Origin: an uncultured delta proteobacterium | Lineage (GTDB): Bacteria > Desulfobacterota > Syntrophia > Syntrophales > UBA2192 | NCBI GenBank assembly: GCA_963705165.1 | Contig: CAVPJD010000009.1 | Location: 69,666-133,665 of the forward strand | DNA length: 64,000 nt | Direction: 5' to 3' | In this document: positions 23,596-52,777 of the stretch, piece after piece | Layout of the letters: each line of letters starts with the position of its first letter | Numbering within the stretch: the first letter of the stretch is position 1 | Notes under the pieces: generated by a model | What the model was told of the DNA's origin: nothing | Databases searched by the model: none | What the model saw: only the letters and a program-made list of their open reading frames with translations | Program-made: the position numbers and the translations under genes

Positions 23596-23596
23596 T

Positions 23597-34173: not shown

Positions 34174-34414
34174 TCGTCGCATAACCGTCTTCGAGGGCGA
34201 CAGGGCGGCGAAAAAGAAGTGGACCAAGGCCGATCAAGGCCTATGAAGACGTGAGATTCAAAAGGACTGTAAACGGCGGGAGTGCCTGGAGGTGACGTGA
34301 GGCAGCGACGGGAGTGACGAAGTCGTTCGGCTTTCCCTTGAGGTAAAGCCGCCCCTTAGGGTGTGCAAAACAACATCGTGTTGCAGATTTAATTTTCAGG
34401 GAGGTAGGAGTTTT

Positions 34415-35595
34415 ATGACGGAATATGATCTCTTTAAAGTTTTCCCAAGAATGCCGAAGAAGGTCATGATCGGCGACATCACGATTCGCGACGGCTTCCA
34501 GCACGAGGAGAGGTTCATCTCCACGAATGCCAAGATTTTCTACGGAAGGGGAGCATCCTGGCGGGCTGCAAGGAACTCGAGGCCACCAACCTGGGCAGTG
34601 CGGTGACGACGCCCCAGTTCAGCGATGCCGACGAAGTGATGAAGGCCATGCGCAGCGACGAGTTCAAAAAACGCTGCGAGCGCGCCAAGATCAAGTATAA
34701 CGAGCTGGTTTTCACAAACGTGACGATCCGCGAGACTGCCGTGGACCGCGCCATCGAGATGAAGAAGAAGGGCTACGGCCCGGACCGCATCCTGATGATG
34801 GTCTCGACGGACCCCGAGCACCACTTCGCCAACTCCGGCACGACGCTCTCCCAGTACTGGAGAGAGGCCGAGCGCTGCATCAAGAAGGCAACCGATGCCG
34901 GCATCAAGATGTGCGGCACGGTCTCCACGATCTGGGGCAGCCCCATCAGCGGCGCAACGAAGCTGGAAGACGCCGTTGAGTTCACGAAGCGATGGTTCTC
35001 CATCGGCGCCTACGACATCGAGCACGCCGACCACGACGGCTCCGCCAACGGCGCCGACGTGTACCGCTACTTCTCGATGTCCTCGATGCCATGCCCAACG
35101 CGAGGCCACCTTGCCGCCGGCACGAGACCAAGCGCATCGCCTCGCAGTCGATCCTGGCAGCGCTGAGGCGGGGCTTGCCCGTTTGAGGGGACGCTGGGCG
35201 GTCTGGGCGGGCAGCAGGCCAACTTCCTCGACGACTGCCCCATCCGCGGCACCGGTGAGTATTACTACAAGGATCACCGGTTCGTAGGGCTGATCTGCCT
35301 GGAGGACCTTATCGTGCAGATCGACGAGCTGGGCATCGAGCATGGCTACGACGTGGACCGTATGCTGTGGCTGGGCTAGAAGCTGGAGAAGACCTGCGGG
35401 CGCAGGCTGCGCAGCGAGGCCGTCAACAACGGCAGCACGGCGAAGGGAGGGAATCCTCAGTTTGGCCGCCCGGGCCTGAAGAAGCTCGTCGAGAAGGAAG
35501 GCGAAAAGCCCGGCGCGAGAGTTCCGGCCGAGTGGCCTGCCGAAGTGAAGCTGGGCGACAAGTGGGGACCGACGGCAGACGTGTGGAAGAAGTAG
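34415..35595 (+). pseudogene. HMG-CoA-lyase-like / pyruvate carboxyltransferase (DRE-TIM) family gene with at least 5 frameshifts and an in-frame TAG
   Basis: ATG 34415 with a GGAGGTAGGAG RBS gives MTEYDLFKVFPRMPKKVMIGDITIRDGFQHEE. Homologous reading hops frames near 34548-34551 (a G4 run), ~35080, ~35162 and ~35183. An in-frame TAG lies at 35377-35379 (..MLWLG*KLEKT..). The final stop is at 35593-35595. Confidence 0.7.
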
Positions 35596-35641
35596 AAGCA
35601 TCGGTAACGGACAAGCATCCAAAATGGATGAAATGTATTTG

Positions 35642-35676
35642 CAGGGCAGGGCTGGCAAACGGCCCTGCCCTGTTTC
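35642..35676 (+). terminator. Rho-independent-type hairpin after the HMGL-like pseudogene
   Basis: CAGGGCAGGGC-TGGCAAACG-GCCCTGCCCTG forms a perfect 11-bp stem, followed by TTTC (a short T tract). Confidence 0.55.
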
Positions 35677-35815
35677 AGGATAGCCCTGTAACTGCCTTGA
35701 TCTCCACGTCCGAAAAATCATCCAAGCCCATTCTGCGGCACCGACGGAGGGAAAACATGGTAGTGAAACGGTCGGCCATGACAATGGGATCAGGATCGAT
35801 CTCAGAGAGGTTCCG

Positions 35816-36945
35816 ATGACCGTGGAAGGAAATCTGTCATTGCTGCGCAAGTACTGGCAGTCGGAAATCGTTGCCGATCGCCTGTACGGCTTTCTTGCCG
35901 CTCGATGCAGCGATGCGGAGCACAGAGAAATTATTTTAAAAATCGGGCGTATGGAGCAGGGGCACGCAACGGTCTGGAGCCGTATCGCCGACAAGTCCCA
36001 TGGCGCCAGGTTCGAAGTTACCCTTTCCCTGAGGTTGAAAATCCTCTTGGGAAAACTGCTTTCAGTCGTCCTTCCGTTCACCATCTTCATCCATTACATG
36101 GAGCACGAGGAGCGAAACGCGATCCTCGAGTACTCCAAGCTGCTCGATGCATACAAGCACGACGAAGACACCCGCAAGATCATCACCAATATCATCCGGC
36201 AGGAAATCGCCCACGAGTGGCAGATGATGGAGCAGATTGCCGACAAAGAAGCCTATATAGAAAAGACCCGGGAAGCGATGGATGCCATGACCATCGGGAG
36301 TATCGAGACGCTGGGAGTGGTCATCGGCCTGCTCGCTGCGCACGCATCGACGCTGACGATCGGGTTGACAGGGCTTCATCGCGTGCACTCGGGGGGCTCA
36401 TCGCGATCATGTCCACATCCTATGTCACATCGAAAGCAACCTCCGATCTGCACGAGGGCTGAACCCGGGAAATCCATATAAAAAGGGACATCAATCCCGC
36501 CGTCCTGAAACGGGAGCTGGAAAAGGCCCTCATCGGGAAAGGAATCGGCAGTGAAACGGTCAAAGACATCATGGGGATCATCGGGGATGACACGTCCATC
36601 CTGTCCAACCTGGTCAAATCGATGAAATCATTGGGCGAGGTCGGCGAGCCGAAAGAGGCCATTAAAACCTCCGGCTTGTTTTTCATCTTCGGAGCCGTAC
36701 CGATCCTGATCCCCTTCTTCGTCGGGGTCATGGGGAATCTCGCTCCCTTTATCCCCGCGGTGACCGCCTTTGTCGTGGCCGTTTTCACGATATCAACGGC
36801 AGGGTTCTTTGTCGCGGTTCTGTCCGGGAAAAAGATATTCATGAAGATCGCGCACAATATCTTCGTCATCATGGGGACGTGCGCCGTCACCTATGCGGTA
36901 GGCCTTGCCGCCCGGATTCTTTTGGGAATCGATGTGGTTCATTGA
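35816..36945 (+). pseudogene. Ferritin-like domain fused to a VIT1/CCC1 iron-transporter family gene, with one frameshift and an in-frame TGA
   Basis: ORF 35816..36481 holds a ferritin/rubrerythrin-like N-domain (EQGHATVW, EHEERNAILEY, QEIAHEW). The frame changes at the G6 run 36391-36396; one extra G gives ..HSGGLIAIMSTSYVTSKATSDLHEG. An in-frame TGA lies at 36460-36462. The same frame then continues through 36571..36945, which encodes the TM C-terminus. Confidence 0.7.
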
Positions 36946-36968
36946 CACGGTTTTCGAGAAGAGGATAA

Positions 36969-37010
36969 TAAAAAACGGGGCCTCGCAATGGAGGTCCCGT
37001 TATATATTTT
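36969..37010. terminator. Bidirectional terminator between the convergent VIT1-like and ATPase genes
   Basis: ACGGGGCCTC-GCAATG-GAGGTCCCGT forms a 10-bp stem with one G-U pair. An A-run precedes it and TATATATTTT follows. Confidence 0.6.
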
Positions 37011-37034
37011 CTGGCGACGCAGGCGGAACTTTCC

Positions 37035-38258
37035 TCATAGTTGACTGTACGGCCAGGCGGTGATGCCCGATCCAAGGGGAAGCTTGACCTCGCCCGGGTG
37101 AACCACGTAGCCGGGCAATGCCCTGCCGTCAAAGTCTTTCTGAAATGTTTTGATCGATGTAGCCATCGCAGGCCGCGGTGTGGAGGAAAGCTTCACTTCA
37201 ATCGGAACGAGCTTTGCGCCGGTTTCAATGACGAAATCCACTTCCGTTCCCGTGGATGTCCGCCAGAAATAAACCTGCGGATCGATACCCCGATGGGTGA
37301 GCGACTTGACGATTTCCGACAGAACCGCCGTTTCCATGATTGCACCCGCCAGAGGGCTGGCGGCGGCGTGCTCGGGGTCTCTCAGGCCCGTGAGATAACA
37401 AAGCATTCCCACGTCCGTGAAGTAGGCCTTCGGTGTCTTGACGAGCCGCTTGTTGAGATTGGCAAAATACGGGCGGATCACCATGACCTGATAGGTGGCC
37501 TCCAGCACGGAAAGCCAGGCCTTGGCTGTGTTGACGGCCACTCCAAGGTCCCTGGCCAAGTCGGTGAGATTCAACAGCTGGGCGCTGCGGGCGGCCAGCG
37601 CCCGAAGGAAGCTCTGGAACTGAGAGAGATCGCCGACCTGGCGGATGGTCCGCACATCCCGTTCAAGGTATGTCTGGACATAGCCGGCATGCCACAGATT
37701 GACGTCGCGGCAGGGATTTGCAATCAATTCCGAGAATCCGCCTTGCAGAAACCCTTTCCAGAGATTCCGGCGTGAGACCGCTGCCGTTGGTGCATCCCGG
37801 TATTCCGGCTCCCACGGCAGGGGGGCCTGAGGCCGGCCGGCCACCTCCCGGTGCGAAAGCGGCAGAAGCCGAAGTATGGCGGCACGGCCTGCCAGCGTCT
37901 CGGTGACCTTCTCCATGAGTAGAATATTCTGGGAGCCTATCAGCAGGTACTGCCCGGGGCTGTCCCGATGGTGGTCGATCATTTCCTTGATGTACGGGAG
38001 AATTTCCGGGACGTACTGCACCTCATCGAAGATAACGGGCGGCGGGTGCATCTCCAGGAAACCTCTTGGATCTTCCATCGCAGCCGCCCTGATATCGAGC
38101 GGTTCCATGGATACATAATGGAACTTCGCGTTGAAGAGATGCTTGAGAAGCGTCGTTTTACCGGACTGGCGCGGACCGGTGAGCACCACTGCCGGGAATT
38201 CCTCGGCAGCCCTTTTCAGGACCGGTTCCAGCGATCTCTTGATGTACTTAGCGGGCAT
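37035..38258 (-). CDS. AAA+ ATPase with a DUF4143-type C-terminal domain
   Basis: Walker A is LTGPRQSGKTTLLKHL and Walker B-like is VIFDEVQ. A GAAGG RBS lies before ATG 38258 (MPAKYIKRSL...). Alternative ATG at 38270 and TTG at 38279. Confidence 0.8.
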   Translation of the reverse strand: MPAKYIKRSLEPVLKRAAEEFPAVVLTGPRQSGKTTLLKHLFNAKFHYVSMEPLDIRAAAMEDPRGFLEMHPPPVIFDEVQYVPEILPYIKEMIDHHRDSPGQYLLIGSQNILLMEKVTETLAGRAAILRLLPLSHREVAGRPQAPLPWEPEYRDAPTAAVSRRNLWKGFLQGGFSELIANPCRDVNLWHAGYVQTYLERDVRTIRQVGDLSQFQSFLRALAARSAQLLNLTDLARDLGVAVNTAKAWLSVLEATYQVMVIRPYFANLNKRLVKTPKAYFTDVGMLCYLTGLRDPEHAAASPLAGAIMETAVLSEIVKSLTHRGIDPQVYFWRTSTGTEVDFVIETGAKLVPIEVKLSSTPRPAMATSIKTFQKDFDGRALPGYVVHPGEVKLPLGSGITAWPYSQL

Positions 38259-38268
38259 GAGAGCCTTC

Positions 38269-38311
38269 ATTTCTTGCAATCATGCATTTGAAATGCATGA
38301 TTGCAAGAAAT
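38269..38311. promoter_or_regulatory. Perfect 43-bp palindrome (21-nt arms, 1-nt centre) abutting the ATPase start region
   Basis: ATTTCTTGCAATCATGCATTT-G-AAATGCATGATTGCAAGAAAT. The arms are exact reverse complements, checked base by base. Confidence 0.6.
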
Positions 38312-38351
38312 ATTTTCTCTCCGGCACAGATGTCCTCGCCGGACCGAGGCA

Positions 38352-38386
38352 GAAAATAAAAACGGGGCCTCTGGAAGAAGGCCCCT
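38352..38386 (-). terminator. Minus-strand rho-independent terminator upstream of the palindrome
   Basis: The stem is GGGGCCT/AGGCCCC (38364-38370 and 38379-38385). On the minus strand it is followed by GTTTTTATTTTC. Confidence 0.55.
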
Positions 38387-38494
38387 GGACTTTTCCGGAC
38401 ATGAATAACTTCTTGTAATGACTCGGAAATACTCTGCACAATATGGCAGGTGACCGATTAGGTGGCGCCACATATCAAACTAGCTAATGAATTT

Positions 38495-38622
38495 AAATAG
38501 ACCGAACAGACGGAATAGACTGAATAGACCAGAGAGCCGCTCCGCGGCATTGCCTTGTGGCTTGCGGCTTGTGGCTCTTACCCTAGTATGTCAATATGAA
38601 AGTCTAACCCCGATCCTCACAC
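38495..38622 (+). repeat. Modular intergenic repeat, copy A
   Basis: Module 1 is an AGAC-octamer array, AAATAGACCGAACAGACGGAATAGACTGAATAGACCAGAGAG. A CCGCTCCGCGG hairpin follows. Module 2 is TTGCCTTGTGGCTTGCGGCTTGTGGC. Module 3 is TCAATATGAAAGTCTAACCCCGATCCTCACAC. Confidence 0.8.
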
Positions 38623-38852
38623 AGATAGCCCACGTCGGTTCTGCACGCGGGATCTTTGCCTGAAATGCCGTTCACCTACAAGGTCCCTGCAGTTGGCCGA
38701 GTGAAATCGAGCAACATCTTGACGATGGTTGTCTTGCCAGCACCGTTGGGACCCAGCAGGGCGAAATATTCGCCTTTCGCGACGGAGAAGGAAATCTGGT
38801 CAACAGCCGTAAGAGAACCGTATCGCTTAGTAACTGCTTGTAATTCAATCAT
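38604..38852 (-). pseudogene. N-terminal stub (~82 codons) of an ABC transporter ATP-binding protein, with an in-frame TAG, truncated at repeat copy A
   Basis: Hand translation from ATG 38852 gives MIELQAVTKRYGSLTAVDQISFSVAKGEYFALLGPNGAGKTTIVKMLLDFTRPTAGTL*VNGISGKDPACRTDVGYLCEDRG*. Walker A is present. The in-frame TAG is at 38676-38678. Recognisable ABC sequence stops at 38604, inside repeat module 3. Confidence 0.7.
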
Positions 38853-39264
38853 GGCTCTCCGTCTCTCGTCTCATTTGAGACTGTTTTTCCTTTATCGTTT
38901 TTTGTAGGCGAGCCGTATCAAAATATACCTCATTACGTATGATTTTATCATTCGATATTTCAACAATATCCAAGCCATAATCAACAATTATGTCGTTATT
39001 AATAGGAAGGGACACCTTCCATTTCAATGTGAATCCATTTTCTGTTGGGAATATTTCAACACACTCATATTTCCAGTTGGGATAAAAACTTATAAAATTG
39101 CTAAAATATGTTAATATTTGCTTTTTCCCTTTTAGACCTTGAGGAATGAAAGGATCTGAATAGAAAGCATCATCTGAATAAAATGATATCAGCAATTCAG
39201 GTTTGTTACCCGTCCAAGCAGGCAACCATCGATTACAAAAATCTTTTGCTTTTTCCAATTCCAT
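38845..39264 (-). CDS. NTF2-like / SnoaL-like small protein (intact; ~35% GC)
   Basis: A 139-aa track ORF. The N-terminus FCNRWLPAWTGNKPELLISFYSDDAFYSDP is typical of SnoaL-like folds. A spot count gives 21/60 GC at 38881-38940. Its stop is 2 nt before the ABC stub ATG. Confidence 0.5.
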   Translation of the reverse strand: MELEKAKDFCNRWLPAWTGNKPELLISFYSDDAFYSDPFIPQGLKGKKQILTYFSNFISFYPNWKYECVEIFPTENGFTLKWKVSLPINNDIIVDYGLDIVEISNDKIIRNEVYFDTARLQKTIKEKQSQMRRETESHD

Positions 39265-39433
39265 AATCTTCTCCTTACATAAGTACGCGAAAGTAATTCA
39301 TGCTGCCGCTAACAATTACGTTGGAATATTGCATAACCTCAACGAATCTAAAAAACACACTTTCAGTGCGCCTCTTATCTTCCTGAAGCCTGATTCCCGA
39401 CTCCCGAAGCCCTCTTTTCGTCACTCCGCGACT

Positions 39434-39574
39434 GGATAGACCGAACAGACGGAATAGACTGAATAGACCAGATGCGGCCTTGCCACTTTGCCACCCTGCC
39501 ACTTCTTTACTGGTCACTGTGGCGTCAATCCTGTTCACTTTTGTCACGGATAAAGATCTGACCCCTATTTCCCC
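39434..39574 (+). repeat. Modular intergenic repeat, copy B
   Basis: It shares an identical 37-nt block, ATAGACCGAACAGACGGAATAGACTGAATAGACCAGA, with copy A. This is followed by GCGGCCTTGCCACTTTGCCACCCTGCCAC and a GGATAAAGATCTGACCCC tail. Confidence 0.8.
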
Positions 39575-39764
39575 TCTGATGATTGACGATTGTAATCGAC
39601 TATGCGAGGTTAAATCCCTTCTCTGCGCATTTCAGGAAGGAAGTTGCTACCCGACCGAAAATGACCTCGAAAAATTCCGTTCTGCGCACGACAAGGCCGC
39701 AACATTCAGTTGGGAATTGAACTGAGGTTTACCGCTTGAACTGTAGACACCAATAACGCTGTCT

Positions 39765-40688
39765 TTATCTTTTCTCATTCAAGAAACTCATGTAGGCCTT
39801 TGCGGTTTCTTCGGGCTTCTCAATCATGGGGCAATGGCCCGTGTCCTCATGATAACCGTCCTGAAATTCTTCAGATTCTTTTCCAGGAACACAACGCTCC
39901 CTACGTCCAGCATCTTGTCCTGATCCCCCCACAGGATCCGGACAGGCGCCTGAATCTGGGGCAGGACGGACGCCAGGGAAAACTGGAACAGGTTGGTATC
40001 GTTCCATATTTTCCTGTTGAACTCCATGTGGGCGATCCAATCCGCGACCAGGATTTTCTTGAAGGCTGGAGGGAAGGGGGGCATCTTCTCGTAAACCAGG
40101 GCCAGCAGCTTATCGACATCTTCGGGGTTGCCGGCCAGCAGCAGATTGTTGCCCTTCTCCAGTTGCAGGACGAACTCGCTTTTGTTTTCAACGGCGCTCC
40201 GGCCATATCCAACAGGGCAAGAGTCAGGACCTTCCCGGGGTGTTTTGCCCCGTAGGTGGCCGCGTATGCGCCGCCCATTGAATTGCCTGCCATGTGGAAT
40301 TTGTCGAGCTTGAGCACCTCCACAAACCGGTCGATGCGCCCAACCTGGCTCTCGACACCGTAATGTTCCGTCGGCACCTGCGAGCTTTCACCGAAGCCGG
40401 GCACATCGGGGATAACAAGGTGGTATCCCTTCAAGTACCTGGCGAAGGCGGTCCATTGGTCCTTGTAGCCGCCGAATCCATGAAGGAGCACGACGGTTTC
40501 CCCTGTTCCTCCTTCCAGGTAAACGATCCGGTGATTGTCGACCATGATGCATTCTTGACCAGATCGGCGGAGCGTCTCTGGGCATCGATCGCCAGTTTGA
40601 ACACCGTTTCCGGGAAAAGGAAGTAAAATGCCACACAGACAACAATGGCAACAACGACGATCAGTCCGTACTTTACGATTTTTTTCAT
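39765..40688 (-). pseudogene. Alpha/beta hydrolase with an N-terminal membrane anchor, broken by at least 3 frameshifts
   Basis: Four overlapping track ORFs tile one protein. They read MKKIVKYGLIVVVAIVV... (40431..40706), VLLHGFGG...HMAGNSMGG nucleophile elbow (39901..40545), ILWGDQDKMLD (39824..40084) and GHCPMIEKPEETAKAYMSFLNEKR (39765..40040). Confidence 0.7.
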
Positions 40689-40953
40689 TTTATTCCCTCC
40701 GGACATCGGACTTTTGGGCTTTCCGAAGGTTAGAGGTGGGTGTTTTGATTAACTGGGCTACAGAAGTGACATTTACAGAATGTTGATTTAGAAATACTCC
40801 TAAACTCATGGGTGGTCAAGAAGATAAAGGGTAATGGAGTATGGACTCCTCTCCAAATCATATAGGAGATTTGCATTTGTAATCAGGCATTCCTCGTGAA
40901 TATCCAAAAAACAAGACTCAGGAAGAAAGCGATACCACTGCAAAGCAGCCCGA

Positions 40954-41087
40954 CGGAACAGACCGAATAGTTCTTCTCCCACGACCAAATAGACAAAATA
41001 GACTAGATAGACGGAATAGACTAGAGAGTTGCCCCGCGGCCCGCTTGTTGCTTGTTGCTTCGCAAAATGCAAGTGTTCCGACCCGTC
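40954..41087 (+). repeat. Modular intergenic repeat, copy C
   Basis: The AGAC array is AAATAGACAAAATAGACTAGATAGACGGAATAGACTAGAGAG. It is followed by the hairpin CCCCGCGGCCCGC, then TTGTTGCTTGTTGCTTCGC, then AAAATGCAAGTGTTCCGACCC. Confidence 0.75.
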
Positions 41088-41146
41088 TTATACACGGCTC
41101 ACGAAAGTAAAAATGTAAAGTACGTCCCCAATCTCCCAATCTCCGC

Positions 41147-41213
41147 CGACCAAATAGACAAAATAGACTAGATGACGAAACAGACCAGAGAACTGCGAAG
41201 CGGCCTCAAGACC
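41147..41213 (+). repeat. Modular intergenic repeat, copy D (partial)
   Basis: It shares an identical 27-nt block, CGACCAAATAGACAAAATAGACTAGAT, with copy C (40982-41008). It ends in ...AACAGACCAGAGAACTGCGAAGCGGC. Confidence 0.75.
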
Positions 41214-41247
41214 TGATTCCATCTCTCTCCCATATCAGAAGGATGGT

Positions 41248-41921
41248 TTAGAATCCCAGCCAGCGAGTATTCTTGTCGAGAGATTCACGACCGTTCACCA
41301 GGGCATTCGCGGGAAAGTCCCAGTCCGGATATCCGATGGCAATGGCAATGATGATCTTCTTGTTATCCGGTATTTGTGCGATTTCCCGTACGGCTTCGGG
41401 ATACAACACCCCCTGGTCTTCAATGCAGGTGCCAAGCCCAAAGTGGAGTGCCGCCAGGCAAATATTCTGCATGGCCGCCCCGAGATCGAGCAGAGGCCCG
41501 CAATCGCTCAGGGATTTATCTGTCAGAAGAAGGATTGCGACCGGAGCGTCAAAGAAACGGAAACCCCGTTCCAGCCAGGCTGCTCTTTTCTTTTTGTCGT
41601 CCCTGGGGATATTCATAAGCTCAAAGAGTTCTTTGGCCAGTTCGATCTGTCGATTCCGGTATATGCTCTCGTTCGACCAGCTGACCGCTTCGTGCTCAGG
41701 ATGCGCCGCCTCTTTCTTGTTTAATTTCTCAACGATGGCAGTCCGCAGCCTGTTCAGAACATCACCCGTCAAGACAAGAAATTCCCATGGTTGCGTATTC
41801 ATTGCCGATGGGCGCCCTGCAGGCCGATTCCAGAATTTTGGTCAACATGTCCTTTGAAACAGGGTCGGATTTGAATCCTCTGATGCTTTTTTCTTTTGTT
41901 TATCGCATCAATAATGTTCAT
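41248..41921 (-). pseudogene. Nitroreductase family gene with two N-terminal frameshifts
   Basis: Track ORF 41248..41802 starts at ..MNTQPWEF. Upstream, ATG 41921 with an AAAGGAG RBS encodes MNIIDAINKRK. The protein continues as SIRGFKSDPVSKDMLTKILESACRAP only if the A6 run (T6 at 41887-41892 on the plus strand) is read as A5. A second shift is needed near 41800-41815. Confidence 0.75.
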
Positions 41922-42056
41922 ACTGTTTCTCCTTTAGCTATGCGGCTTGCGGCCAATGATAACCCTTTCCTTAATCTCTCCTTCGCCCGCCGAGGAAGGC
42001 GGTGTCGTGAGCAGCCATGGCGAGCTGCCATGGTTGAGCCGTGTCGAAAAACCCAC

Positions 42057-42208
<152 letters not shown>

Positions 42209-42234
<26 letters not shown>

Positions 42235-42935
42235 TACTTACCGTAACATTGACGGTGAGCGTTTGGCCGGAAGCCTCGACGATTTTAATTGCTGCACTTC
42301 CTGTTTGCTGGGCGCTAACCGCATATTGCTTGGCGCCGGTGGGTGAAATTCCCTGATATTGAACTTTGACGCAGTTATTGGATGCTGTAATCGTGAACGG
42401 CTCCTTCCCCCCATACAGACAGAATGCGTATTTTCCCCTTTATGTCGCTTAATATCAAATTGCTGTCCGTTATCACCGCCTGAAGTTTTGCGACTGCAGG
42501 CACGGGCCTTTCTTTGACGCGGATATAGGTAAATGTGGCCGTATTGCGGCTGTCCCGCACAGTAATATTGGCCAGACCGGGTTTATTGGCCGTGATGCGG
42601 CAGTTATTCTTGTCAACCTTGGTAATCGTTACGGCATTCTTGTTATGTTCCGTCACGGTATACGGCGGCGCACCGGCTGTCATATTCAGGGTGGCTGTTC
42701 CGCCGACATAAATTTCGCTAGCGGACAGCTTCAATTGCGGGCGTTGGTTCTCATTCGGTATGACCGTCACCTGCGCATTACCGCCCTTGCCCTGGCCGTT
42801 TTTACTTGCACCATAACCTTGCTGCCGAGACTGGACGAGACGCCTTTGAAGACAAAGGTATCCGCAGCGCCGGTACCGGTGACGGCAAGATTGGTGGAAA
42901 CTTGGGGTCAAATCTTTATCCTTGAATATTAAAAG
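42209..42935 (-). pseudogene. Remnant of a secreted protein with two Ig-like (Big-type) domains; at least 2 frameshifts and no identifiable start
   Basis: Track ORF 42375..42911 contains LKLSASEIYVGGTATLNMTAGAPPYTVTEHNKNAVTITKVDKNNCRITANKPGLANITVRD. After the C6 run at 42407-42412 the next frame reads YGGKEPFTITASNNCVKVQYQGISPTGAKQYAVSAQQTGSAAIKIVEASGQTLTVNVTV. Its stop at 42209-42211 lies inside repeat F. Upstream, a third frame reads NLAVTGTGAADTFVFKGVSSSLGSKV. Confidence 0.45.
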
Positions 42936-42963
42936 TACACGATGTTGAAGTTATTCAAACAAA

Positions 42964-43003
42964 AAAGCCCGACCAGAAGCTTACATCTCCCGAGTCGGGC
43001 TTT
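42964..43003 (-). terminator. Minus-strand terminator-like hairpin
   Basis: The stem is AAAGCCCGAC/GTCGGGCTTT with a 20-nt loop. On the minus strand it is followed by TTTTTTG. Confidence 0.45.
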
Positions 43004-43027
43004 ATGATCCCGCAAAAATTTCATTGT

Positions 43028-43119
43028 CCCCTCTGGTCTTTCTAGTCTGTCTAGTCTATTCGGTCTATCCAGTCTGTCTGGTCTATTTAGTTTGTTCGTT
43101 GATTTCGTTTGTTTCGTCG
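43028..43119 (-). repeat. Modular intergenic repeat, copy E (AGAC array in inverted orientation)
   Basis: The plus strand reads CCCCTCTGGTCTTTCTAGTCTGTCTAGTCTATTCGGTCTATCCAGTCTGTCTGGTCTATTT. Its reverse complement is ...AAATAGACCAGACAGACTGGATAGACCGAATAGACTAGACAGACTAGAAAGACCAGAGGGG. A GTTTGTTCGTT/GATTTCGTTTGTTTCGT tract follows. Confidence 0.75.
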
Positions 43120-43245
43120 AGAGAAGGCAAGTATTGTCTGTGTAAATAAGCTTGCCCGTACGGGCGGTTAGATGAATGTCTTGACAGGCGCGAGCTGTAA
43201 ATGCTAAATGCTGCCTCCTGGTATTGTAGAAACATGAGAATGGAT

Positions 43246-43360
43246 ATGCGCAAACACCTGGTCATCATATCGGCTGTTTTATTTTTCTTCGTGTCGCTGG
43301 CTCTTGCCCTGCATCACGACGATGCCCCCTTTCAGACAGTCACTTGTTCCATCTGCAAGG
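43246..43360 (+). CDS. 5' part of a small membrane protein ORF that is cut off at the composition junction
   Basis: MRKHLVIISAVLFFFVSLALALHHDDAPFQTVTCSICKVK, at ~45% GC. Candidate ATG starts are at 43234, 43240 and 43246. A weak TTGACA lies at 43181-43186. In the track the ORF runs straight into epimerase-like sequence (ORF 43201..43785). Confidence 0.3.
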
Positions 43361-44253
43361 TGAAGAACTCGTCTTCGCGCGAACAGGACTGGCCGGGCGA
43401 GGTCGAGCAACTGACGGGCGACCGCAACACCGGCACGCTCGACGCGTTGAAGAACCGCGCGTGGGACGTCTGCATCGACAACCCGACCACGCTGCCGTTC
43501 TGGGTGCGCGACGCCGGCCAGGTGCTCAAGGGCAAGGTCGGCCAGTACGTCTTCATCTCCACGCTGTCGGTCTATGCCGAGGAGAAAGAGGTGGGGGCCG
43601 ACGAGACGGCGCCGGTGGCCCAGTACCAAGGGGGCCGACCCGATGAAGGAGTCCCAGGAGACGCTGCGCGGCGACGTCGGCAACCTGTACGGCCCGCTGA
43701 AGGCCCTGTCGGAGAAGGAAGCCGAGCGGTGGTTCCCGGGCATCACGACCGTCATCCGCCCCACGCTCATCGTCGGACCCGGTGACGATTCGGACAGGTT
43801 CACCTACTGGCCCGTTCGCCTCAACCGCGGGGGCGACGTGCTCGCGCCGGGGGACGGCAGCGATCCGGTTCAGTACATCGACGCGCGCGACCTCGCCCAG
43901 TGGACCATCCGCATGGTCGAGTCCAGGACGCTGGGCACCTTCAACGCCGCGGGCCCCGACTTCGAGCTGACGATGATGGAGATGCTCTACGGCATCCGCG
44001 CGGCGACGACCGTGGCGTCGAAGCTCCACTGGGTGCCGACCAGTTTCCTGCGCGAGCAGAAGGTGCAGGCCTGGTCGGACATGCCCGGCGTGGGTGCCGT
44101 CGGAGCCCGACACGCGCGGGTTCAGTACGCGGAGCGTCAAGCGCGCCGTGGCGGCCGGGCTCACGTATCGGCCGCTCGCCCAGACGGCACTGGACACGCT
44201 GGCCTGGTGGAAGACGCTGCCCGCCGAGCGGCAGGCCGCCTTGCGCGCGGGCA

Positions 44254-45693
<1,440 letters not shown>

Positions 45694-45733
45694 GGCGGGT
45701 ACTCATCCCACACGTGAATGGGCCAACGACCAA

Positions 45734-47364
45734 TCAGCGGGTGGCGCCGAGACCGGCCATCAACGCCACGAGTGCCGGGGAAGGGTCGGGCCCCGTGCCC
45801 AGCGCGTGGTGCTCGCACGCCTCGTGAACCTTCATCAACTCCGCGTAGCGCGCCACGTTGGCCGCGTCTGGCACGACGCGACTGAGCGCTCGCCGGACGA
45901 CGAAGCCGTCGACGACCCCGGCCCAGTCCGCCGGCTCGCTGCGGTCCACGAGGTCCGCGTGATACGCCCGCAGCGCCGCCCCGAGCGACGCGGAATCGCC
46001 CACCTCGAGCTGGTGGACGTCCGCGCCGAAGACGTCGGCCATCACGCTGCAGCATGCCTCGATTCACCGCGGCGCCGCCGGTGGCGTGGATGGTGTCCAC
46101 GCGCACGCCCATCCAGCGGCAGTGCCGAGCCATCGCCATCATCTGCGCCTCGACGAGGGCGCGCACGTTGGCCGGGCCGTCGGTGTCGTGGAGGCCGTAG
46201 CGGCGGACGCCGGCGCGAGCACGCTCGGCGTGATCTCCGGCTTCGAACCACGGCAGCATGATGCGCCGCCGTTCCGGCGCGGGTTGCGTGCCGCAGCGCC
46301 CGGAGAATCCCGCCCAGTCGAGCCCGAATGCCTGCCGGACACGCTCGCGGGCCAGCGAGCCGTTCTTGAAGCAGATGAGGCCCATGTAGTCGCCGGTCGG
46401 CGAGCCGAACACGTGCCCCGTTCCGGACGGGTCCATGCGGGCCTCGGGCATGAAGCCGAAGACCGTGTCGCTCGTGCCGAGCGAGACGGCGATGCGCCCT
46501 CGCGAAGGAGACCGACGCCGACGAGGCTGCACGGGTTGTCGCCGGACCACGCGATCACCTTGGCCGGAGGAAGCCCGTATCGCGCGTCCAGTAGGGCGCG
46601 AGCGTGCCGACCACCGCCCGAGGGCGCCCGAATCGGCGGCAGCCTGCCGGCAAGGTCCGGGCCGTCGCTCGCAGCGCCGCCGGCGCCCACTGCCTCGCCG
46701 ATGTCCATCAGGTTCATGCCCGAGCCGTCGCCCGGCTCGATCGGCGCGTGGCCCCCGGCAAGCAGCGAGGCAAGAAACGAACTCACGAGGTGGATGCGCT
46801 CGGTGCGCGCGTAGCCGTCCGGGTCGGTGCGTGCGAACTTGCGGATCTGCGGCCCGGTGAAGCGCTCGAACGCCCGCGATCCGGTGAGCCGCGCGAGCGC
46901 GGCGTCGCCGCCCACGGCCGCGCTCGATGGCCCGGCAGTCCGCGGTGGTGCTGGAGTCCATCCAGATGGGCGAGCACCTCGCGCGAGAACAGGCCACGGA
47001 GCTGGACGGCCAGCGGTCGTGCGGGATCGAGGCGCGCGAGGGCGTCGCCGGCACCACGCGCCAGGTAGACGCTGCCGTGCTGCTGCGCCGGAGCCCGAGA
47101 TCGCCTGAAGGCCGGACAGGTCGATGCCGCTGTCCTTCAGCCCGGCATCATGGCATCCAGCGCGTCGGCCCACATGGCCGGCGGCGCCACGGCCACGAGG
47201 GGATCGGCACCCGGCGACACGCCGTGCCGCGTACCGTAAGCGGGCAGGGCGTCGTCGAAGCGCAGTGAGTGCCGGAAGACGACCTGGCGGCGGGGCCCAT
47301 CAATCTCGATGAGCGTGGCCGTCAGGCTCTGCGTGCTGGAGTCGAAGCCGAGATAGGTGGGCAT
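45734..47364 (-). pseudogene. FGGY-family carbohydrate kinase (xylulokinase-like), with several frameshifts
   Basis: ATG 47364 gives MPTYLGFDSSTQSLTATLIEID (the tail of ORF 47137..47886). Middle blocks such as [36 protein letters not shown] and [18 protein letters not shown] lie in ORF 46139..47173. The C-terminus lies in ORF 45734..46045. Confidence 0.65.
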
Positions 47365-47426
47365 GGGGGGTCGTTCGCGGAGCGCGGTGGGGGTCACGCG
47401 TGGCGGGGGATCACCCAGCGTGCGGG

Positions 47427-48950
47427 TCACGGCGCGGGCCGGCCACCCAGCCGCGACACCAGCGGCAGCAACACGAGGCCTGCTGCCGCCGCCAGCGTCC
47501 GGTACGGCCACAGCATCGCCCCGCCCGCGTCGTACCAGACGGCGGGATCGACCGCAACGAACCGCGCGGTCATCTCGGGGTAGGGGATGAAGGGTGCCGG
47601 CCCGAGCAGCGGCTCGCCCCCGCCCAGCCGAAGTACCAGCGACACGCCGAAGGCGACCATCGACGCCCTTCGCGTGGCGCGCGGGTCGTAGAGTGCGGCG
47701 ACCAGCTGCGGGAAGAGCAGCACGAACACGAGGTCCGACGTGAAGTCCCACAGCGCCTGCACGCTCTGCGCGCGCAGCGCGAGCACCGCCGCGACCGCAC
47801 CGACGACCAGCACGGCGAGCCGCACGGCGCGTGTCGTGCCCGCGGCGCCGAGCTCGCGTCCTCGCAGCGCCCGCAGGCCGTTCCAAATCGCCATCGACGC
47901 GGCCGAGAGCACCGACGCACTGAAGCTCGAGGTGACGGCGCCGACAATGGCGCTCAGGCCGAGCAGCGCGACCAGGGGCGGCGTGGCCTCACGCAACAAC
48001 AGGGGCAAGGCCTGGGCCGGGGTCGCGGCGAGTTGCGTGAGCGCCGGCTCGGTCCACGGGTACACCGCCGCGGCCACTCCCAGGATCAGCGGCGGCACGA
48101 CCAGGGCCATCGTCGCGAACCCGGCGACGATCGAGGTCCGCCGCGCATGCGCGGGAGACGAGCACGCCAGCACCCGTTGGAAATAGCAGTTCCATGGCAC
48201 GCCGCCCAGCAACAGCATCACGCTGAGGTCCCACCACGCCGTCACAGCTGGCAGCGTCCAATGCGCGCCGCCGAGGGTGACGGGCGGACCGAGTCCGCCA
48301 CGCTCGGCGAAGGTGGCGCGGTAGGCGCTCCACGTCGCGTCGAGCCCACCCGTGGCCGCGAGCACGAATGGCACGGCGAGGCACATCCCCACGCCGACCA
48401 GTGCGAGTTGCAGCACGTCGGCGTAGGTCACCGACCACAGTCCGCCCGCCATCGTGTAGGCGAGCACCGTCGCCGCCGCGACGAGCACCGCGACCTCGAA
48501 CGGGACGCCGAGCAGCGCCGCAGAGCTGGCGCCGATGGCAACCAGCAGCTCGGCGCTCCAGAACAGCTCGCCCATCACCGCCGGCACCGCGAGCACGGCG
48601 GCCCACGATCCGCCAAAGCGTTCCGCCAGGGGATCGATGAGGGTCGTGTAGCCCCGCGCGCGCATCCGGCCGGCGAAGCACGCGCCGCCGATCACCAGGC
48701 TGAGGCCGAAGCACACGCCGCCCTGCCAGCCCGAGGCGGGGCTCGACCGGAACGCGCCTTCCGCCGTGCCGAGCAGGTAGCCGCCATCCACCCACGTCGC
48801 CGTCATGGTGAGGACGGCCAGCCAGACCGGCAGCGCGCGACCGCCCAGGATGAGGTCCGACCGCCGGGCGCGCTTGGCGCCCTGCCACCCGAGCAGCAGG
48901 AAGGCGGCGAGCATGGCGGCGATGATGGCGGGCGCGGCGGCGGAGATCAC
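47427..48950 (-). CDS. Sodium:solute symporter (SSS) family transporter, intact
   Basis: A 507-aa uninterrupted polytopic ORF (LGGRALPVWLAVLTMTATWVDGGYLLGTAEGAF...). It lies directly upstream of the FGGY kinase on the same strand. Confidence 0.75.
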   Translation of the reverse strand: MISAAAPAIIAAMLAAFLLLGWQGAKRARRSDLILGGRALPVWLAVLTMTATWVDGGYLLGTAEGAFRSSPASGWQGGVCFGLSLVIGGACFAGRMRARGYTTLIDPLAERFGGSWAAVLAVPAVMGELFWSAELLVAIGASSAALLGVPFEVAVLVAAATVLAYTMAGGLWSVTYADVLQLALVGVGMCLAVPFVLAATGGLDATWSAYRATFAERGGLGPPVTLGGAHWTLPAVTAWWDLSVMLLLGGVPWNCYFQRVLACSSPAHARRTSIVAGFATMALVVPPLILGVAAAVYPWTEPALTQLAATPAQALPLLLREATPPLVALLGLSAIVGAVTSSFSASVLSAASMAIWNGLRALRGRELGAAGTTRAVRLAVLVVGAVAAVLALRAQSVQALWDFTSDLVFVLLFPQLVAALYDPRATRRASMVAFGVSLVLRLGGGEPLLGPAPFIPYPEMTARFVAVDPAVWYDAGGAMLWPYRTLAAAAGLVLLPLVSRLGGRPAP

Positions 48951-49107
48951 GGGGGAGGCCGGGATGGTGACCGGCGCAGCGTATCACCGTGCGGGCTGCG
49001 TATCCGTGCCGGTGCCGTGTCGTCGCGGCGCAGCGGGCTGGTCGGTCCAGCGTGCTGCTCGCTGGCCAGCCAAGGCGTGATAGCCTCCTGCCGCGAAGGA
49101 GCCGCGC

Positions 49108-50967
49108 ATGCCGACCAATGCGACGACCGCCACCGCCCGCGCCGAGGCATTCCTGCGCGATGCGGTCGAGTTTCGCCTTGGACCACTCGTGACCGAGGCC
49201 CCACACCCCCGGTCAACCGACCTGAGCCAGACCGCCAGGCAGGACGCGGCTGCTGGCCTCGGCGTCCTCTTCGACGTGGACCGTGACGTCTTCGAGACCT
49301 ACGACCGCTGGTCGCGCAGCGGCGAGCCCGAAGCCCTCCGCGACCTGGTGCTCGCATCGCTGGGCAAGGGCGGCCGCCTCTTCTTCACCGGGTGCGGCGC
49401 GACGGGTCGACTCAGCATCCAGCTGGCCTCGACCTGGCGAGCGTTCTGGCAGGATCGACGCCGCAGTGGCCGGGCGACGCCATCGCCCGACGTCTGGGAG
49501 CACCGCGCCTTCAGTGTGATGGCGGGCGGCGACTACGCGCTGATCAAGTCGGTCGAGGGGTTTGAGGACTTCGCCCCCTTTGGCCGCAAGCAGCTGGCGG
49601 AACTCGGGGTGGCGGCCGACGACGTGGTGTTTGCGATCACCGAGGGCGGCGAGACGTCCTTCGTGATTGGGACCGCCTGGCAGGGTCTCAGCGTGGGCGC
49701 GCGGGTGATCTTCGTCTACAACAACCCGGATGCCGTGCTCCGCGCCCACGTCACGCGGAGCCGCGAGGTGATCGACGAGCCGCGGATCCGCAAGGTCAAC
49801 CTCACCACCGGGCCGATGGCCGTGACGGGCTCCACGCGCATGCAGGCCACCAGCATCCAGTTGCTGGCCATGCTCACGGTGCTCGAGATGGTGCTCCGCG
49901 AGGTGTTGGTGCAGGCGGGGGTGGACGAGCCGGGGCCGTCCTCGGGCGAAGTACCCGAAGCGATGCGCGCGCGTTCGCGGCGCTGCACGAGACGTTGACG
50001 AGCGTTGCGGTGCGCGACGTGCTCGCTCGTCTGGTGCGGCGCCGAGGAGCACGTCTATCGCGCGGGTGCCGAACCTCGTACTTCGCGGACGCCCTGGCGT
50101 GGATGTCCTGACCGATACCACCGAGCGCAGCCCCACGTTCTGCACACCGTCCTTCCGCAAGTGGGACGATGACGAGGCGTCGGAGTCCTGGGCGTTCCTG
50201 TTCACGCCGGCGCCGACGACGCCCGAGGCCTGGACGCGTCTGCTCAGGCGGGCGCCCCAGACCATCCAGTGGAGCCGGAGGACCTGCGAGAACTGCTTGA
50301 CGAGGAGGCCGCCGAACGTCAGGGTGCGATTCTCGGCGAGATCGGCCTGCGTGAACTGCTGCGCTTCCGAATCGGCGTGGACGGCCTGCCGTATCGGCCG
50401 GTGCGCGCGGGCGACGGCATGACGGCGGTTGTGTGTGGAGAGGATCTAGCGCTGGTGGGAGACGGCGGCGTCTTCGCCCAGCAGCACGCTCGCGCGCGGG
50501 CCGGCGGCGCGCTGACGTCGATGATTGCCATCGGGCGCCCGGCTGCGCTCGCGCCTCTGGTCGCCACATCCGCTGCGCGTGCCAACGACGGCAGGACCCT
50601 CGCCGTCGCGGTGGCCGAGACGGCGTTGCTGCTCGACCCGCTCGTGCGAGTCGGCGCCAAGATGATCCTCAACGCGCTCTCGACCTGCACGATGGTCCGC
50701 CTCGGGCGCGTGCTGGGCAACCGCATGATCTGGGTGGTGCCGAGCAACCTCAAGCTGATCGATCGCTCGACGCGCTACATCCGCGACCTCGCATCGGTGT
50801 CCTACGAGGAGGCCTGCCGGTCCCTGTTCGAGGTCATCGACTACGTCGAGCCGAGACGCCGTGCGGGCCGGACCTATCCCGCTCCGGTGGGCGTGGCGAC
50901 GATGCGCCTGCGCCACGGGTTGAGCCTGGCGGAGGCGGAGGCGCGGCTGATTCAGGAACTCGGCTGA
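49108..50967 (+). pseudogene. SIS-domain sugar-phosphate isomerase/etherase-like protein (MurQ/GCKR superfamily), tiled over at least 3 frames
   Basis: ORF 49108..49998 reads GGRLFFTGCGATGRLSIQLAS...VVFAITEGGETSFVIG...VTGSTRMQATSIQLL. ORF 50066..50422 reads VDVLTDTTERSPTFCTPSFRKW. ORF 50269..50967 reads MILNALSTCTMVRLGRVLGNRMIWVVPSNLKLIDRSTRYIRDL. Confidence 0.5.
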
Positions 50968-52340
50968 GTGCCCGGTGCCCTCTCGACCGCCAGTTGACGC
51001 CCTGGCGATCTGAGGCTGCGGGACGCGCCGGAAGGCTCGCACGAGTTCTCTTCCACCGCGGCCCGCTGCGGATCGCCCTCCGACGCCCAGCCGGCTGGAC
51101 GTTCACTTCGAAGGCGGTGGGGGGCGATCCGGTGCCACCCCTCGATGCCGGCCAGCAGGAGCAGGATGCCGGTCAGGAGGGCTCCGTACCTGGGCATGAA
51201 GACGACGACGTAGTAGACGAGGGGAAACGTTACGAGTGGAATGACCAGGGCCGCCCGCTGGGGCACTGCCAGGGCAGGCCAGGCGCGCCGCAAACCCAGC
51301 GCCGCCAGGATCGTCAGCATCGCCGACGCCGCGGCCATCGGGCCCTGCGACGCCGACCCGAACCAGAAGTGGAACGCGCGCCGCGCCGTCAGGCTGAGGA
51401 ATCGCCCAGGATGCGCGCCAATCCACGCGAGGGCTTCCTGCCGGGAGCGGCGCATGTACTCGACCTCGCCAATCTGCTGCAGCAACTTCGCCTCGGCCAC
51501 GTTGGTTCGCGGGTGCCGGAGCGCCAGGCCTTCCGTCGCATCCATGACGTCGATGTCGGCCACGGCCCCCTCGTGGTTGCCCATGCGCAACTCGAGGCCG
51601 AGGTTGCTGCGGATGAAGAACACTTCTCCAAAGACGGCGTAGTTGCGCAAGCCCCAGGGGACGCAGGCCAGCGCCACGCCCACCAGCGTCAACGCCGTCG
51701 GCGCCCACCTGCGCCGGTCTCGGCTCCACCACAGATCGAACAGGAGGCAACCGAGCAGGACCGGAACCAGTGACGGTGTCAGGTGAAACGCGGCCCCCCA
51801 CGCAGCGCCCAGAACCAGGGCGCCGCGTGGCGACGGCGTTGCCCTTCGCCAGCGGCTCACATGCCACGCGAGCAACAGGCCGAGCGCGACCGCGGCGAAG
51901 TACTCGACCTGGTGCGGCCACCTCGGTACCAGGGCTCCGGCAAGTCCGCCGACGATGCCCGCCTCGCGGCCGACACCTAGACGGTGCGCCAGCCAGGGCA
52001 ACATGGCGACCATCGCTGCACTGGCCGCGACCTGCACGAACCATGTGGCGTACCCGGCCGCCATCGTCAGGCCGAAGAGCGTGTACAGCAGGCCGAGCAG
52101 GGCCGGGAATGCCGGCGGCACGTGCGCGGTCGGGCCGGTGGGCACCGCGTAGGGGTCGGCGAAACGTCCGGTGGTTGCAAGCGAGACGGCGACGGCGTTG
52201 GCTTCCCACCGCGCGTGCGGCTCAATCCACTCGCGCGGGACCAATGGCAGCAACGCGGTGCCCTCGGCGAAGGCGACGAGGAAGATGACCAGCAACGCGC
52301 GCGCGGGAGCCTGGGCCAGCCAGCGCACCGCCGATGCCAT
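50952..52340 (-). CDS. Polytopic membrane protein, GT-C (ArnT/PMT family 39)-like glycosyltransferase fold; hypothetical
   Basis: ATG 52340 (MASAVRWLAQ...) lies within track ORF 50952..52391. It has about 10 TM segments and a large loop (FIRSNLGLELRMGNHEG...). The family call is weak. Confidence 0.4.
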   Translation of the reverse strand: MASAVRWLAQAPARALLVIFLVAFAEGTALLPLVPREWIEPHARWEANAVAVSLATTGRFADPYAVPTGPTAHVPPAFPALLGLLYTLFGLTMAAGYATWFVQVAASAAMVAMLPWLAHRLGVGREAGIVGGLAGALVPRWPHQVEYFAAVALGLLLAWHVSRWRRATPSPRGALVLGAAWGAAFHLTPSLVPVLLGCLLFDLWWSRDRRRWAPTALTLVGVALACVPWGLRNYAVFGEVFFIRSNLGLELRMGNHEGAVADIDVMDATEGLALRHPRTNVAEAKLLQQIGEVEYMRRSRQEALAWIGAHPGRFLSLTARRAFHFWFGSASQGPMAAASAMLTILAALGLRRAWPALAVPQRAALVIPLVTFPLVYYVVVFMPRYGALLTGILLLLAGIEGWHRIAPHRLRSERPAGWASEGDPQRAAVEENSCEPSGASRSLRSPGRQLAVERAPGTQPSS

Positions 52341-52363
52341 GCCCGTGACCTCGCCGGCTCGAG

Positions 52364-52777
52364 TCAGGCGCCGAGCAGGGCGCCGACGCAATCCACGTCC
52401 TCCCGGTGGACGTAGAGGAGATAGGCGTAGCCGCCGCGCCCGTCAGCAATGCCACTCGAGGAGGCGATGTTGATCCCGTGCTCGTAGAGCTGCCGGTGAC
52501 ACTCCACGAGCGCGCCCAGGTGGTCGTCGCCCTGCATGAGGAATGCGTGCTGCGGCGAGCTCAGCCCCCAGCCCTGCTTCTCGGCAACGGCGGCGAGGTC
52601 CTCGAGGTCGGCAGGGAACATCACCAGCTGGGTCTTGTTCATCCCGAGCGGAATGGCGTGGAAGGCCAGCAGGTTCACGCCTCCGGCGGCCATTTGCGCG
52701 AGGAAGGGAAAGGCCTCCCCCGGGCGATCCTCGATGATGACGGAGCAATACGCGACGCGGCGGATGGTGGCGGCCAT
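52364..52777 (-). CDS. Small ACT-domain-like protein (hypothetical)
   Basis: ATG 52777 gives MAATIRRVAYCSVIIEDRPGEAFPFLAQMAAGGVNLLAFHAIP... (137 aa). Two similar halves suggest tandem ACT-like folds. Confidence 0.4.
   Translation of the reverse strand: MAATIRRVAYCSVIIEDRPGEAFPFLAQMAAGGVNLLAFHAIPLGMNKTQLVMFPADLEDLAAVAEKQGWGLSSPQHAFLMQGDDHLGALVECHRQLYEHGINIASSSGIADGRGGYAYLLYVHREDVDCVGALLGA

Follow-up and report, generated by a model that had tools for sequence, protein, structure and literature searches.

A probable artificial join between Syntrophales-type and Vicinamibacteria-like DNA in a public contig

The window analyzed in this study, i.e., the whole stretch of 64,000 nucleotides, changes its base composition and its gene content abruptly near 43.4 kb, within a single open reading frame. 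This raises the question whether the boundary marks the uptake of foreign DNA by a living cell or an artificial connection of two sequences. A preliminary description of this DNA had named a chimeric contig as the leading explanation and a very recent illegitimate recombination as the alternative. The present analysis of the sequence supports the first reading: at 43377|43378, DNA of two unrelated bacteria was very probably connected artificially, in long-read sequencing or assembly. The evidence comes from the taxonomy and the composition of the two sides, the blunt truncation of two genes, the lack of a recombination signature and the position of the junction in an error-rich stretch.

The junction and the two truncated genes

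The GC counts reported before were exact on recount, with 26/60 and 29/60 for positions 43201–43320 and 42/60 for positions 43381–43440. A two-segment likelihood fit over 41–46 kb placed the change point at base 43376, with a support interval of 43365–43394 and a log-likelihood gain of 120. The GC content is 0.505 in 41000–43377 and 0.717 in 43378–46000. Over the window it is about 0.60 in 1–38 kb, 0.44–0.53 in 38–43 kb and 0.66–0.73 from 43.4 kb to the window end, in line with the value of about 70% described for the right side. The local 200-nt step in GC content at the junction is 0.185. This is not the maximum of the window, where steps as large as 0.26 occur at ordinary gene boundaries. 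The unusual property of the junction is the persistence of the GC shift for more than 20 kb (20.6 kb to the window end).

The exact position was obtained by aligning both parents. DNA similarity to the left parent (contigs L090 and L091) spans 43171–43377 and ends there, and similarity to the right parent (contig L001) begins with CGCGAA at base 43378. Base 43377 is therefore the last base of the left parent and base 43378 the first one of the right parent. The join is blunt, with a microhomology of at most 1 nt. By the GC fit and the homology to both parents, the abrupt switch that had been located to about 20 nt is sharpened to 43377|43378.

The open reading frame crossing the junction (43201..43785, plus strand) encodes 194 aa, and its translation reads MRMDMRKHLVIISAV...TCSICKVKNSSS, followed by REQDWPGEVEQLTGDR.... 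From the ATG at 43234 onward it is identical to the public protein P0361 (183 aa), which was found as a singleton in a collection of ~15 billion proteins and is located on one NCBI/ENA contig. This contig is evidently the window's own, and P0361 therefore gives no independent support for the junction. In addition, a degenerate pattern spanning the junction gave 0 matches in 241 million JGI metagenome records. That the junction is absent from independent data carries little weight, as a real but rare event would be a singleton too. Neither genome_contigs nor metagenome_contigs contained the exact 33-mer immediately to the left of the junction. As the junction is probably artificial, the reading frame would be an artifact and the 183-aa fusion in the public databases would not be a real protein.

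The left part of the fusion is the 5′ fragment of a small membrane-protein gene (43234..43377, plus strand), comprising 48 codons. To find its family, 1.84 billion representative proteins were scanned without a profile, using the 44-residue N-terminal peptide as query. The relatives (P0362 and P0364–P0369) have lengths of 81–117 aa (family length 103–117 aa) and have a membrane anchor, an HHDD motif and TCSICKVKNSSS in common. Across the position of the cut they read '...KVKNSSS(A/G)TPHK...NKAPP'. The closest one, P0362, consists of 117 aa in all, is 93% identical over query residues 1–44 and is carried by one contig each from JGI and Logan (L090, L091). Past the equivalent of base 43377 these two contigs continue with GCTACA..., i.e., with the remainder of the 117-aa gene. 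About 60 C-terminal codons of the left gene are lost at the junction. Since the relatives continue with KVKNSSS and then (A/G)TPHK, NSSS is part of the left gene. The fusion of a small membrane peptide to an SDR epimerase had been recognized correctly, but the assignment of NSSS to the epimerase has to be revised.

The right part is a fragment of a Tat-signal SDR/NAD-dependent epimerase (43378..44306, plus strand; Pfam PF01370), which covers residues ~85–396 of 396 and starts at residue ~83–85. Homologs of this enzyme have ~381–405 aa, and one named homolog is annotated with a twin-arginine signal. The best match, P0001, is 84% identical, and the named relatives are from Vicinamibacterales, Vicinamibacteria and Thermoanaerobaculia MAGs. 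A tblastn search with P0001 recovered the epimerase in three pieces in three frames with 84–86% identity, and the DNA alignment to L001 revealed two single-base C insertions at ~43625 and ~44084. At the junction about 84 codons plus the promoter are lost. The missing ~84 N-terminal residues include the Tat signal and the GxxGxxG motif, the lack of which had been noted before. The truncation at the N-terminus described before holds, but the protein is cut at about residue 85 of its 396 and not in the middle. Independent assemblies contain both parent genes in full, with a different continuation of each beyond the breakpoint.

The junction lies within a perfect 10-bp palindrome (TTCGCGCGAA), whose center is one base right of the breakpoint. 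Palindromes of this type have a background frequency of ~0.0015 per position, and its presence, a point against the artificial join, is probably due to chance. An origin from a restriction site was rejected, since the two parents share no matching site of a blunt cutter. Furthermore, adapter sequences (ONT ligation and rapid, SMRTbell, Nextera and TruSeq) were aligned to the junction, to the 38.3-kb and 34.2-kb boundaries and to a poly-G tract, and nothing above background was found.

Origin of the DNA on both sides

The DNA right of the junction, segment R (43378..64000), comprises at least 20.6 kb with a GC content of 70%. It is Vicinamibacteria-like (Acidobacteriota) and contains about 26 single-base frameshifts. 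Its genes encode the epimerase, NhaA, an FGGY kinase, an SSF symporter, an SIS protein, a TonB-dependent receptor of the CarboxypepD_reg type and a large repeat protein. P0001 is located on five JGI contigs (L001–L005), where the genes follow each other in the order PfkB, epimerase (P0001), FGGY kinase, amidohydrolase, SSF symporter and 619-aa SIS protein. On these contigs the N-terminus of the epimerase and the PfkB gene stand before the equivalent of base 43378. The order in the window is epimerase, NhaA, FGGY kinase, SSF symporter and SIS protein, with protein identities of 68–86% to L001–L005, and it agrees with these Vicinamibacteria chromosomal contigs over at least 7.6 kb. Synteny and identity thus identify segment R as ordinary chromosomal DNA of a Vicinamibacteria-like lineage, which is entered inside the epimerase gene.

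Tetranucleotide usage divides the window into three compartments, namely L (1–38.3 kb), M (38.3–43.38 kb) and R (43.38–64 kb). The distance is 5.56 between L and R and 8.85 between M and R, compared to 1.3–2.9 within segments. Segment R has a distance of only 1.09 to L001 (z-score correlation r = 0.87), and segment L has one of 1.39 to the Syntrophales-type contig L006 (correlation 0.83). The low distance between R and L001 indicates that R has not drifted toward the composition of the left flank; its GC3 of 0.9 and its donor-type tetranucleotide usage are intact. Base and oligonucleotide composition therefore change abruptly and persistently at one point, and the gene-level taxonomy changes at the same point. 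The preliminary description had proposed to compare composition and taxonomy of the flanks separately. The tetranucleotides separate the two flanks, each of which agrees with independent contigs of its own lineage, i.e., of Syntrophales/'delta proteobacterium' type on the left and of Vicinamibacteria type on the right. The Acidobacteria-like character suggested for the right flank is borne out by the Vicinamibacteria-type relatives of the epimerase as well as by synteny and composition shared with L001-type contigs.

A mobile element (transposon, integrative element or prophage) with its machinery beyond the right end of the window could in principle produce such a block, and the 70% GC DNA does run past base 64000, so that its far end lies outside the window. 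However, neither a terminal inverted repeat nor an att-like repeat nor a tRNA is present at the near end. Scanning revealed no tRNA or tmRNA in the whole 64 kb, no Rfam family around the junction, no integrase or transposase domain among the ORFs scanned, and no significant direct or inverted repeat flanking the junction apart from the 10-bp palindrome. This agrees with the preliminary description, in which neither a tRNA, an integrase, a terminal inverted repeat nor a target-site duplication had been seen. A site-specific island would be expected with an integrase, a tRNA or att site and direct repeats, and a transposon or IS element with a transposase and boundary inverted repeats. The incoming epimerase gene is itself cut at codon ~85, which is abnormal for the end of a defined element, and the gene order behind it is that of an ordinary Vicinamibacteria chromosome. 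An inserted mobile element is therefore considered extremely improbable.

The left flank consists of three segments. Segment L (1..34198) has a GC content of 60%, is of Syntrophales/'delta proteobacterium' type and contains the kdp operon, Fur and KatG; no frameshifts were detected in it. Its KatG is identical to the public protein P0121, known from one contig of 147,087 bp, which is also the length of the contig with P0361; P0122 is a 99% KatG relative. KatG and its upstream operon share 89–95% DNA identity with 'delta proteobacterium'/Syntrophales-type contigs, and the 290-kb ENA contig L006 has 89–90% DNA identity across 25069–34198. The closest KatG among species representatives (88%) belongs to an 'uncultured delta proteobacterium' MAG labeled MFD00032. 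The KatG genome scan gave no relative above this value, and hence no close genome to compare across the junction.

Segment Lq (34199..38299) resembles L in composition but is error-rich. It contains an HMGL-like gene, a VIT1-like gene and an intact gene for a DUF4143 ATPase. The synteny with the relatives stops at its left edge, at 34198 for L006 and at 34183 for L007 (blastn), and the end of this similarity coincides with the start of the errors at ~34.3 kb.

Segment M (38300..43377) adjoins the junction. It has a GC content of 49%, is of Syntrophales type and contains about 6 frameshifts. All of its genes are located on the minus strand and encode an ABC ATPase fragment, a SnoaL protein, an alpha/beta hydrolase, a nitroreductase and an Ig-like protein. 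The best match of the nitroreductase is a JGI protein with 95% identity, and the named matches are from Syntrophales and Syntrophaceae. Five arrays of the 9-bp unit ATAGACNNA were found in this segment. They are present nowhere else in the window (L, R) and in none of the relatives of L; the JGI contigs L088 and L089, which carry the nitroreductase gene at 92% DNA identity, have the same 9-bp arrays. Segment M may come from a third genome. The deltaproteobacterial nature described for the left side, with about 60% GC in the part containing kdp, was thus recognized correctly, except that the DNA next to the junction (38.3–43.38 kb) is a separate segment of 49% GC.

An integron-like cassette array was rejected for segment M, since the 9-bp arrays are short and not attC-like and an integrase is missing. 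A 21-nt perfect palindrome at 38269–38311 was considered as a fold-back read artifact and rejected as well, because its symmetry extends for at most ~30 nt per arm and it is located at a gene start. In a pattern scan of viral contigs, the 9-bp array pattern occurred in 118 stretches, many of them on contigs named GVMAG.

The junction could also reflect a real, very recent acquisition, in which a Syntrophales-type strain of low abundance took up at least 20 kb of chromosomal DNA from Vicinamibacteria and inserted it through homology-independent end-joining. The small membrane-protein gene and the incoming epimerase gene would both have been cut, and the frameshifts in this part of the window would still be sequencing errors, caused by the low coverage of the strain. 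A blunt join with at most 1 nt of microhomology inside two truncated genes is compatible with this, as end-joining in the cell also leaves blunt, homology-free joins, so that this feature does not separate an event in vivo from an artifact. The missing adapter remnant likewise speaks against a chimera, and the left flank is mosaic, repeat-rich and unlike its relatives. In being (nearly) blunt, within genes and free of repeats or an integrase, the junction resembles illegitimate recombination in bacteria. Such recombination usually imports short stretches, often with a homologous anchor on one side. Here, in contrast, at least 20.6 kb of the core chromosome of another phylum would have been taken up; an anchor is missing, and the window shows no second junction that returns to host DNA. 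This DNA is ordinary and syntenic, it does not differ from the donor lineage in composition, and the ORFs tested included no gene of a mobile element. Furthermore, no independent copy of the junction was found, and the additional composition breaks at ~34.2 and 38.3 kb are not explained by a single insertion. Taken together, a real acquisition seems unlikely.

Frameshifts and the error-rich tail

The two sides of the 34.3-kb position differ strongly in the integrity of their reading frames. No frameshift was found in the 34.2 kb from 1 to 34.2 kb, compared to ~36 frameshifts and 3 in-frame stops in the 29.6 kb from 34.4 to 64 kb (binomial p ~1e-12). In the clean part, the codon-phase segments agree with the ORF boundaries. 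The comparison of 25.07–34.2 kb with L006 (90% identity over 9 kb) gave 0 frame-breaking indels inside annotated genes. The sole non-triplet gap has 2 nt and is located at ~30082; with the start placed according to the shorter gene of L006 (359 aa), it lies in front of the coding sequence.

Within the tail, frameshifts affect genes of all three segments. In segment R, there are 2 in the epimerase gene and at least 4 in the NhaA gene, whose product is matched by the E. coli NhaA structures in two frames. The FGGY kinase gene has at least 3 net frameshifts, with ~12 single-base indels in 1.6 kb compared to L001, and the SIS protein gene has 5 indels within 300 nt. The gene of the TonB-dependent receptor carries 8 frameshifts, that of the large repeat protein (56758–61856) about 5, and a further gene at 62102–63342 carries 2. 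In segment M, the genes for the alpha/beta hydrolase, the nitroreductase and the Ig-like protein contain 3, 2 and at least 1, respectively, and the truncated ABC ATPase fragment (38620–38870) contains 1 in-frame stop. In segment Lq, the HMGL-like gene has 3 frameshifts and 1 stop, and the VIT1-like gene has 1 frameshift and 1 stop. Clean stretches are found in between, namely the 1.5-kb SSF gene, the DUF4143 ATPase gene and 57.6–61.0 kb.

Where close references exist, nearly all indels are of 1 nt and occur in both directions; one of them is a T5 run read as T6. Correction of the frames raised the Pfam match of the TonB-dependent receptor from 165 bits, in fragments, to 437 bits, covering positions 1–824 of the 838 of the profile. 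The profile coverage was extended from 2–102 to 2–245 of 245 for the alpha/beta hydrolase, from 59–178 to 2–253 of 260 for the HMGL-like protein and from 135–213 to 11–213 of 214 for the VIT1-like protein. The corrected nitroreductase has 223 aa, which is the exact length of its family. Because the corrected genes regain full-length family matches, the frameshifts are attributed to sequencing errors of the long-read type and not to gene decay.

Gene decay would be the signature of an old genomic island, in which 34.4–64 kb would be non-functional foreign DNA in the left genome and the frameshifts and stops would be real pseudogene lesions. The number of frameshifts, the three in-frame stops in segments of different origin and the truncated ABC ATPase fragment agree with such an island. 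On the other hand, the lesions relative to close references are almost all single-base indels without any larger deletion, and every corrected gene returned to a full-length family match. Clean stretches alternate with error clusters, as would result from patchy depth and not from uniform decay, and the GC3 of 0.9 and the donor-type tetranucleotide usage are unimpaired. Free-living bacteria rapidly delete dead DNA. A decaying island is thus very improbable.

The patchy distribution of the errors points to a low and uneven read depth. If the error-rich tail is taken as a proxy for thin coverage, the junction is located inside a thinly covered tail. The step in error density is at ~34.3 kb and not at the junction, and the density is similar on either side of 43377. 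This uniformity over 34.4–64 kb argues against a chimera to some degree, as it is also expected if one real molecule from a rare strain holds both sides, i.e., in the case of a recent acquisition. A confinement of the frameshifts to a bridge of ~9 kb (38.3–47.4 kb), e.g., from a single bad read, was considered and dropped, since homology and codon phase show errors from 34.4 kb to the window end.

Comparison with documented chimeras and consequences

Chimeric contigs that combine several phyla, sometimes from more than two sources, with single-read stretches and frame-breaking indels, have been described for metaFlye and other long-read assemblers (Trigodet et al., 10.1101/2025.04.22.649783). 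According to these authors, sudden shifts in GC content, coverage and taxonomy are the tell-tale signs (10.1101/2025.04.22.649783). The window resembles these contigs in its sudden shift of GC content and gene taxonomy, its more than two apparent sources, its stretches that seem to rest on very few reads and its broken frames. It differs in that its coverage is only inferred from the error density, whereas Trigodet et al. demonstrated chimeras from read clipping and coverage. That contigs of like appearance are documented for this class of assemblers counts against a real acquisition (10.1101/2025.04.22.649783).

Chimeras can also arise before assembly. Cross-species chimeric Nanopore reads, joined at random positions, have been seen in microbial standards (PMC13141652). 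Like these 'cross' reads of ligation libraries, the window would combine two unrelated molecules at an arbitrary point, where neither homology nor a biological signature is seen. Compared to them, the join could derive from a single read or from the assembly graph, and it carries no adapter remnant.

An artificial join could have formed as follows. The source contig would be a Nanopore-only metaFlye assembly, judging from its close relatives, which have Flye-style names (contig_22114, contig_44872) and MFD labels. In the MFD project, Nanopore-only data were assembled with Flye --meta --nano-hq and polished in one Medaka round (PMC12313526). The first 34 kb of the contig would be of Syntrophales type and assembled at good read depth, and the remainder would be a thinly covered tail from a few reads of low-abundance organisms. 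The tail comprises three compositionally distinct pieces in a row (Lq, M and R), which may have been linked through at least one chimeric read or through a wrong path in the assembly graph. At 43377|43378, such a read or path would join Syntrophales-type to Vicinamibacteria DNA.

With an artificial join, the junction is a data-quality problem and probably without biological importance. The public NCBI/ENA contig of 147,087 bp, which was presumably binned into a MAG, very likely holds at least 20 kb from another phylum, and taken at face value it could be misread as evidence for gene transfer between phyla. If the junction were real, it would be an unusually clean case of large-scale, homology-free DNA uptake between phyla. 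It would then offer, as is rather doubtful here, a snapshot of cross-phylum illegitimate recombination before decay or compositional drift and without the machinery of a mobile element.

Joins of this kind can be flagged without reads, by tracing each flank to its own parent in independent assemblies, which yields a base-exact breakpoint. The density of single-base frameshifts is usable as a stand-in for read depth. The fusion protein P0361, which very probably does not exist, is already present in protein collections.

Reading-frame breaks and the left edge of the error-rich stretch

About 36 single-base frameshifts and three in-frame stops were found between positions 34400 and 64000, whereas none was detected in the first 34.2 kb. 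Public gene calls for this part of the contig will be fragmented or wrong; the gene of the TonB receptor (53127-56410), for instance, is split eight times across two frames. The stretch starts where the similarity at the DNA level to L006 (89-90%) and L007 (95%), the two closest relatives available, stops (34183-34198), 10-25 nt past the stop codon of katG. A further assembly breakpoint may lie here, or this may be the edge of a strain-specific region.

At 44298-44310 the window reads GGGTGG, whereas the Vicinamibacteria-like contig L001 has GGGTAG, which contains the stop codon of the epimerase, and past this site the epimerase frame stays open for about 55 further codons. The difference may be real, or it may be another base error. 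On the minus strand (16339-19028), an ORF of 532 aa and one of 362 aa abut within 3 nt, between the kdp structural genes and a putative response-regulator ORF. They could represent a KdpD that is split by nature, or a gene interrupted by a single break.

Repeats in the 49% GC segment

Five intergenic sites, all inside 4.7 kb, hold arrays of a 9-bp unit with the consensus ATAGACNNA, each consisting of 4-6 tandem copies. Four of the arrays are located on the plus strand (38488-38542, 39427-39481, 40980-41034, and 41136-41172) and one on the minus strand (43015-43096), and the array pattern gave 11 matches, with 0 expected. Such arrays were found neither elsewhere in the window nor in the relatives of the 60% GC part, and they are also present on independent JGI contigs which have the nitroreductase in common with this segment (L088, 565-636 and 2545-2660, as well as L089). 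The arrays appear to be a lineage-specific interspersed repeat.

Where the 58% GC segment meets the 49% GC segment, a perfect inverted repeat (38269-38311; 21-nt arms, 1-nt spacer) overlaps the start codon of a DUF4143/AAA_14 ATPase gene (37035-38279, minus strand). Nearby, an N-terminal part, about 85 residues long, of an ABC transporter ATPase (38620-38870, minus strand), with an in-frame stop inside, ends beside a 9-bp array and is therefore a gene fragment rather than a frameshifted whole gene.

At 42138-42172, 28 consecutive G and then 7 C stand just behind an element of about 43 nt (42068-42110), of which L088 has two copies, both without poly-G. This stretch may have arisen as an artefact of basecalling or assembly, or it may be a hypervariable tract that really exists.

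The palindrome and the small membrane-anchored protein at the join

A perfect 10-bp palindrome, TTCGCGCGAA (43374-43383), is centred one base right of the breakpoint. The last bases of the left parent and the first bases of the right one together make it up. Perfect palindromes of this length have a background of about 0.0015 per position.

The gene fragment at 43234-43377 belongs to a family of small membrane-anchored proteins of 81-117 aa (P0362, P0364-P0369; L090, 1374-1727) with the conserved motifs HHDD and TCSICK(V/I)K; most of its members also have NKAPP at the C-terminus. For the copies on the left-parent contigs L090 and L091 no Pfam domain is on record; their neighbours encode a Zn-ribbon protein, a cation-efflux (CDF) protein, and TerC. 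As a guess, the family might have a metal-related role. In P0363, a relative of 613 aa, eight stretches match the 44-residue N-terminal query peptide.
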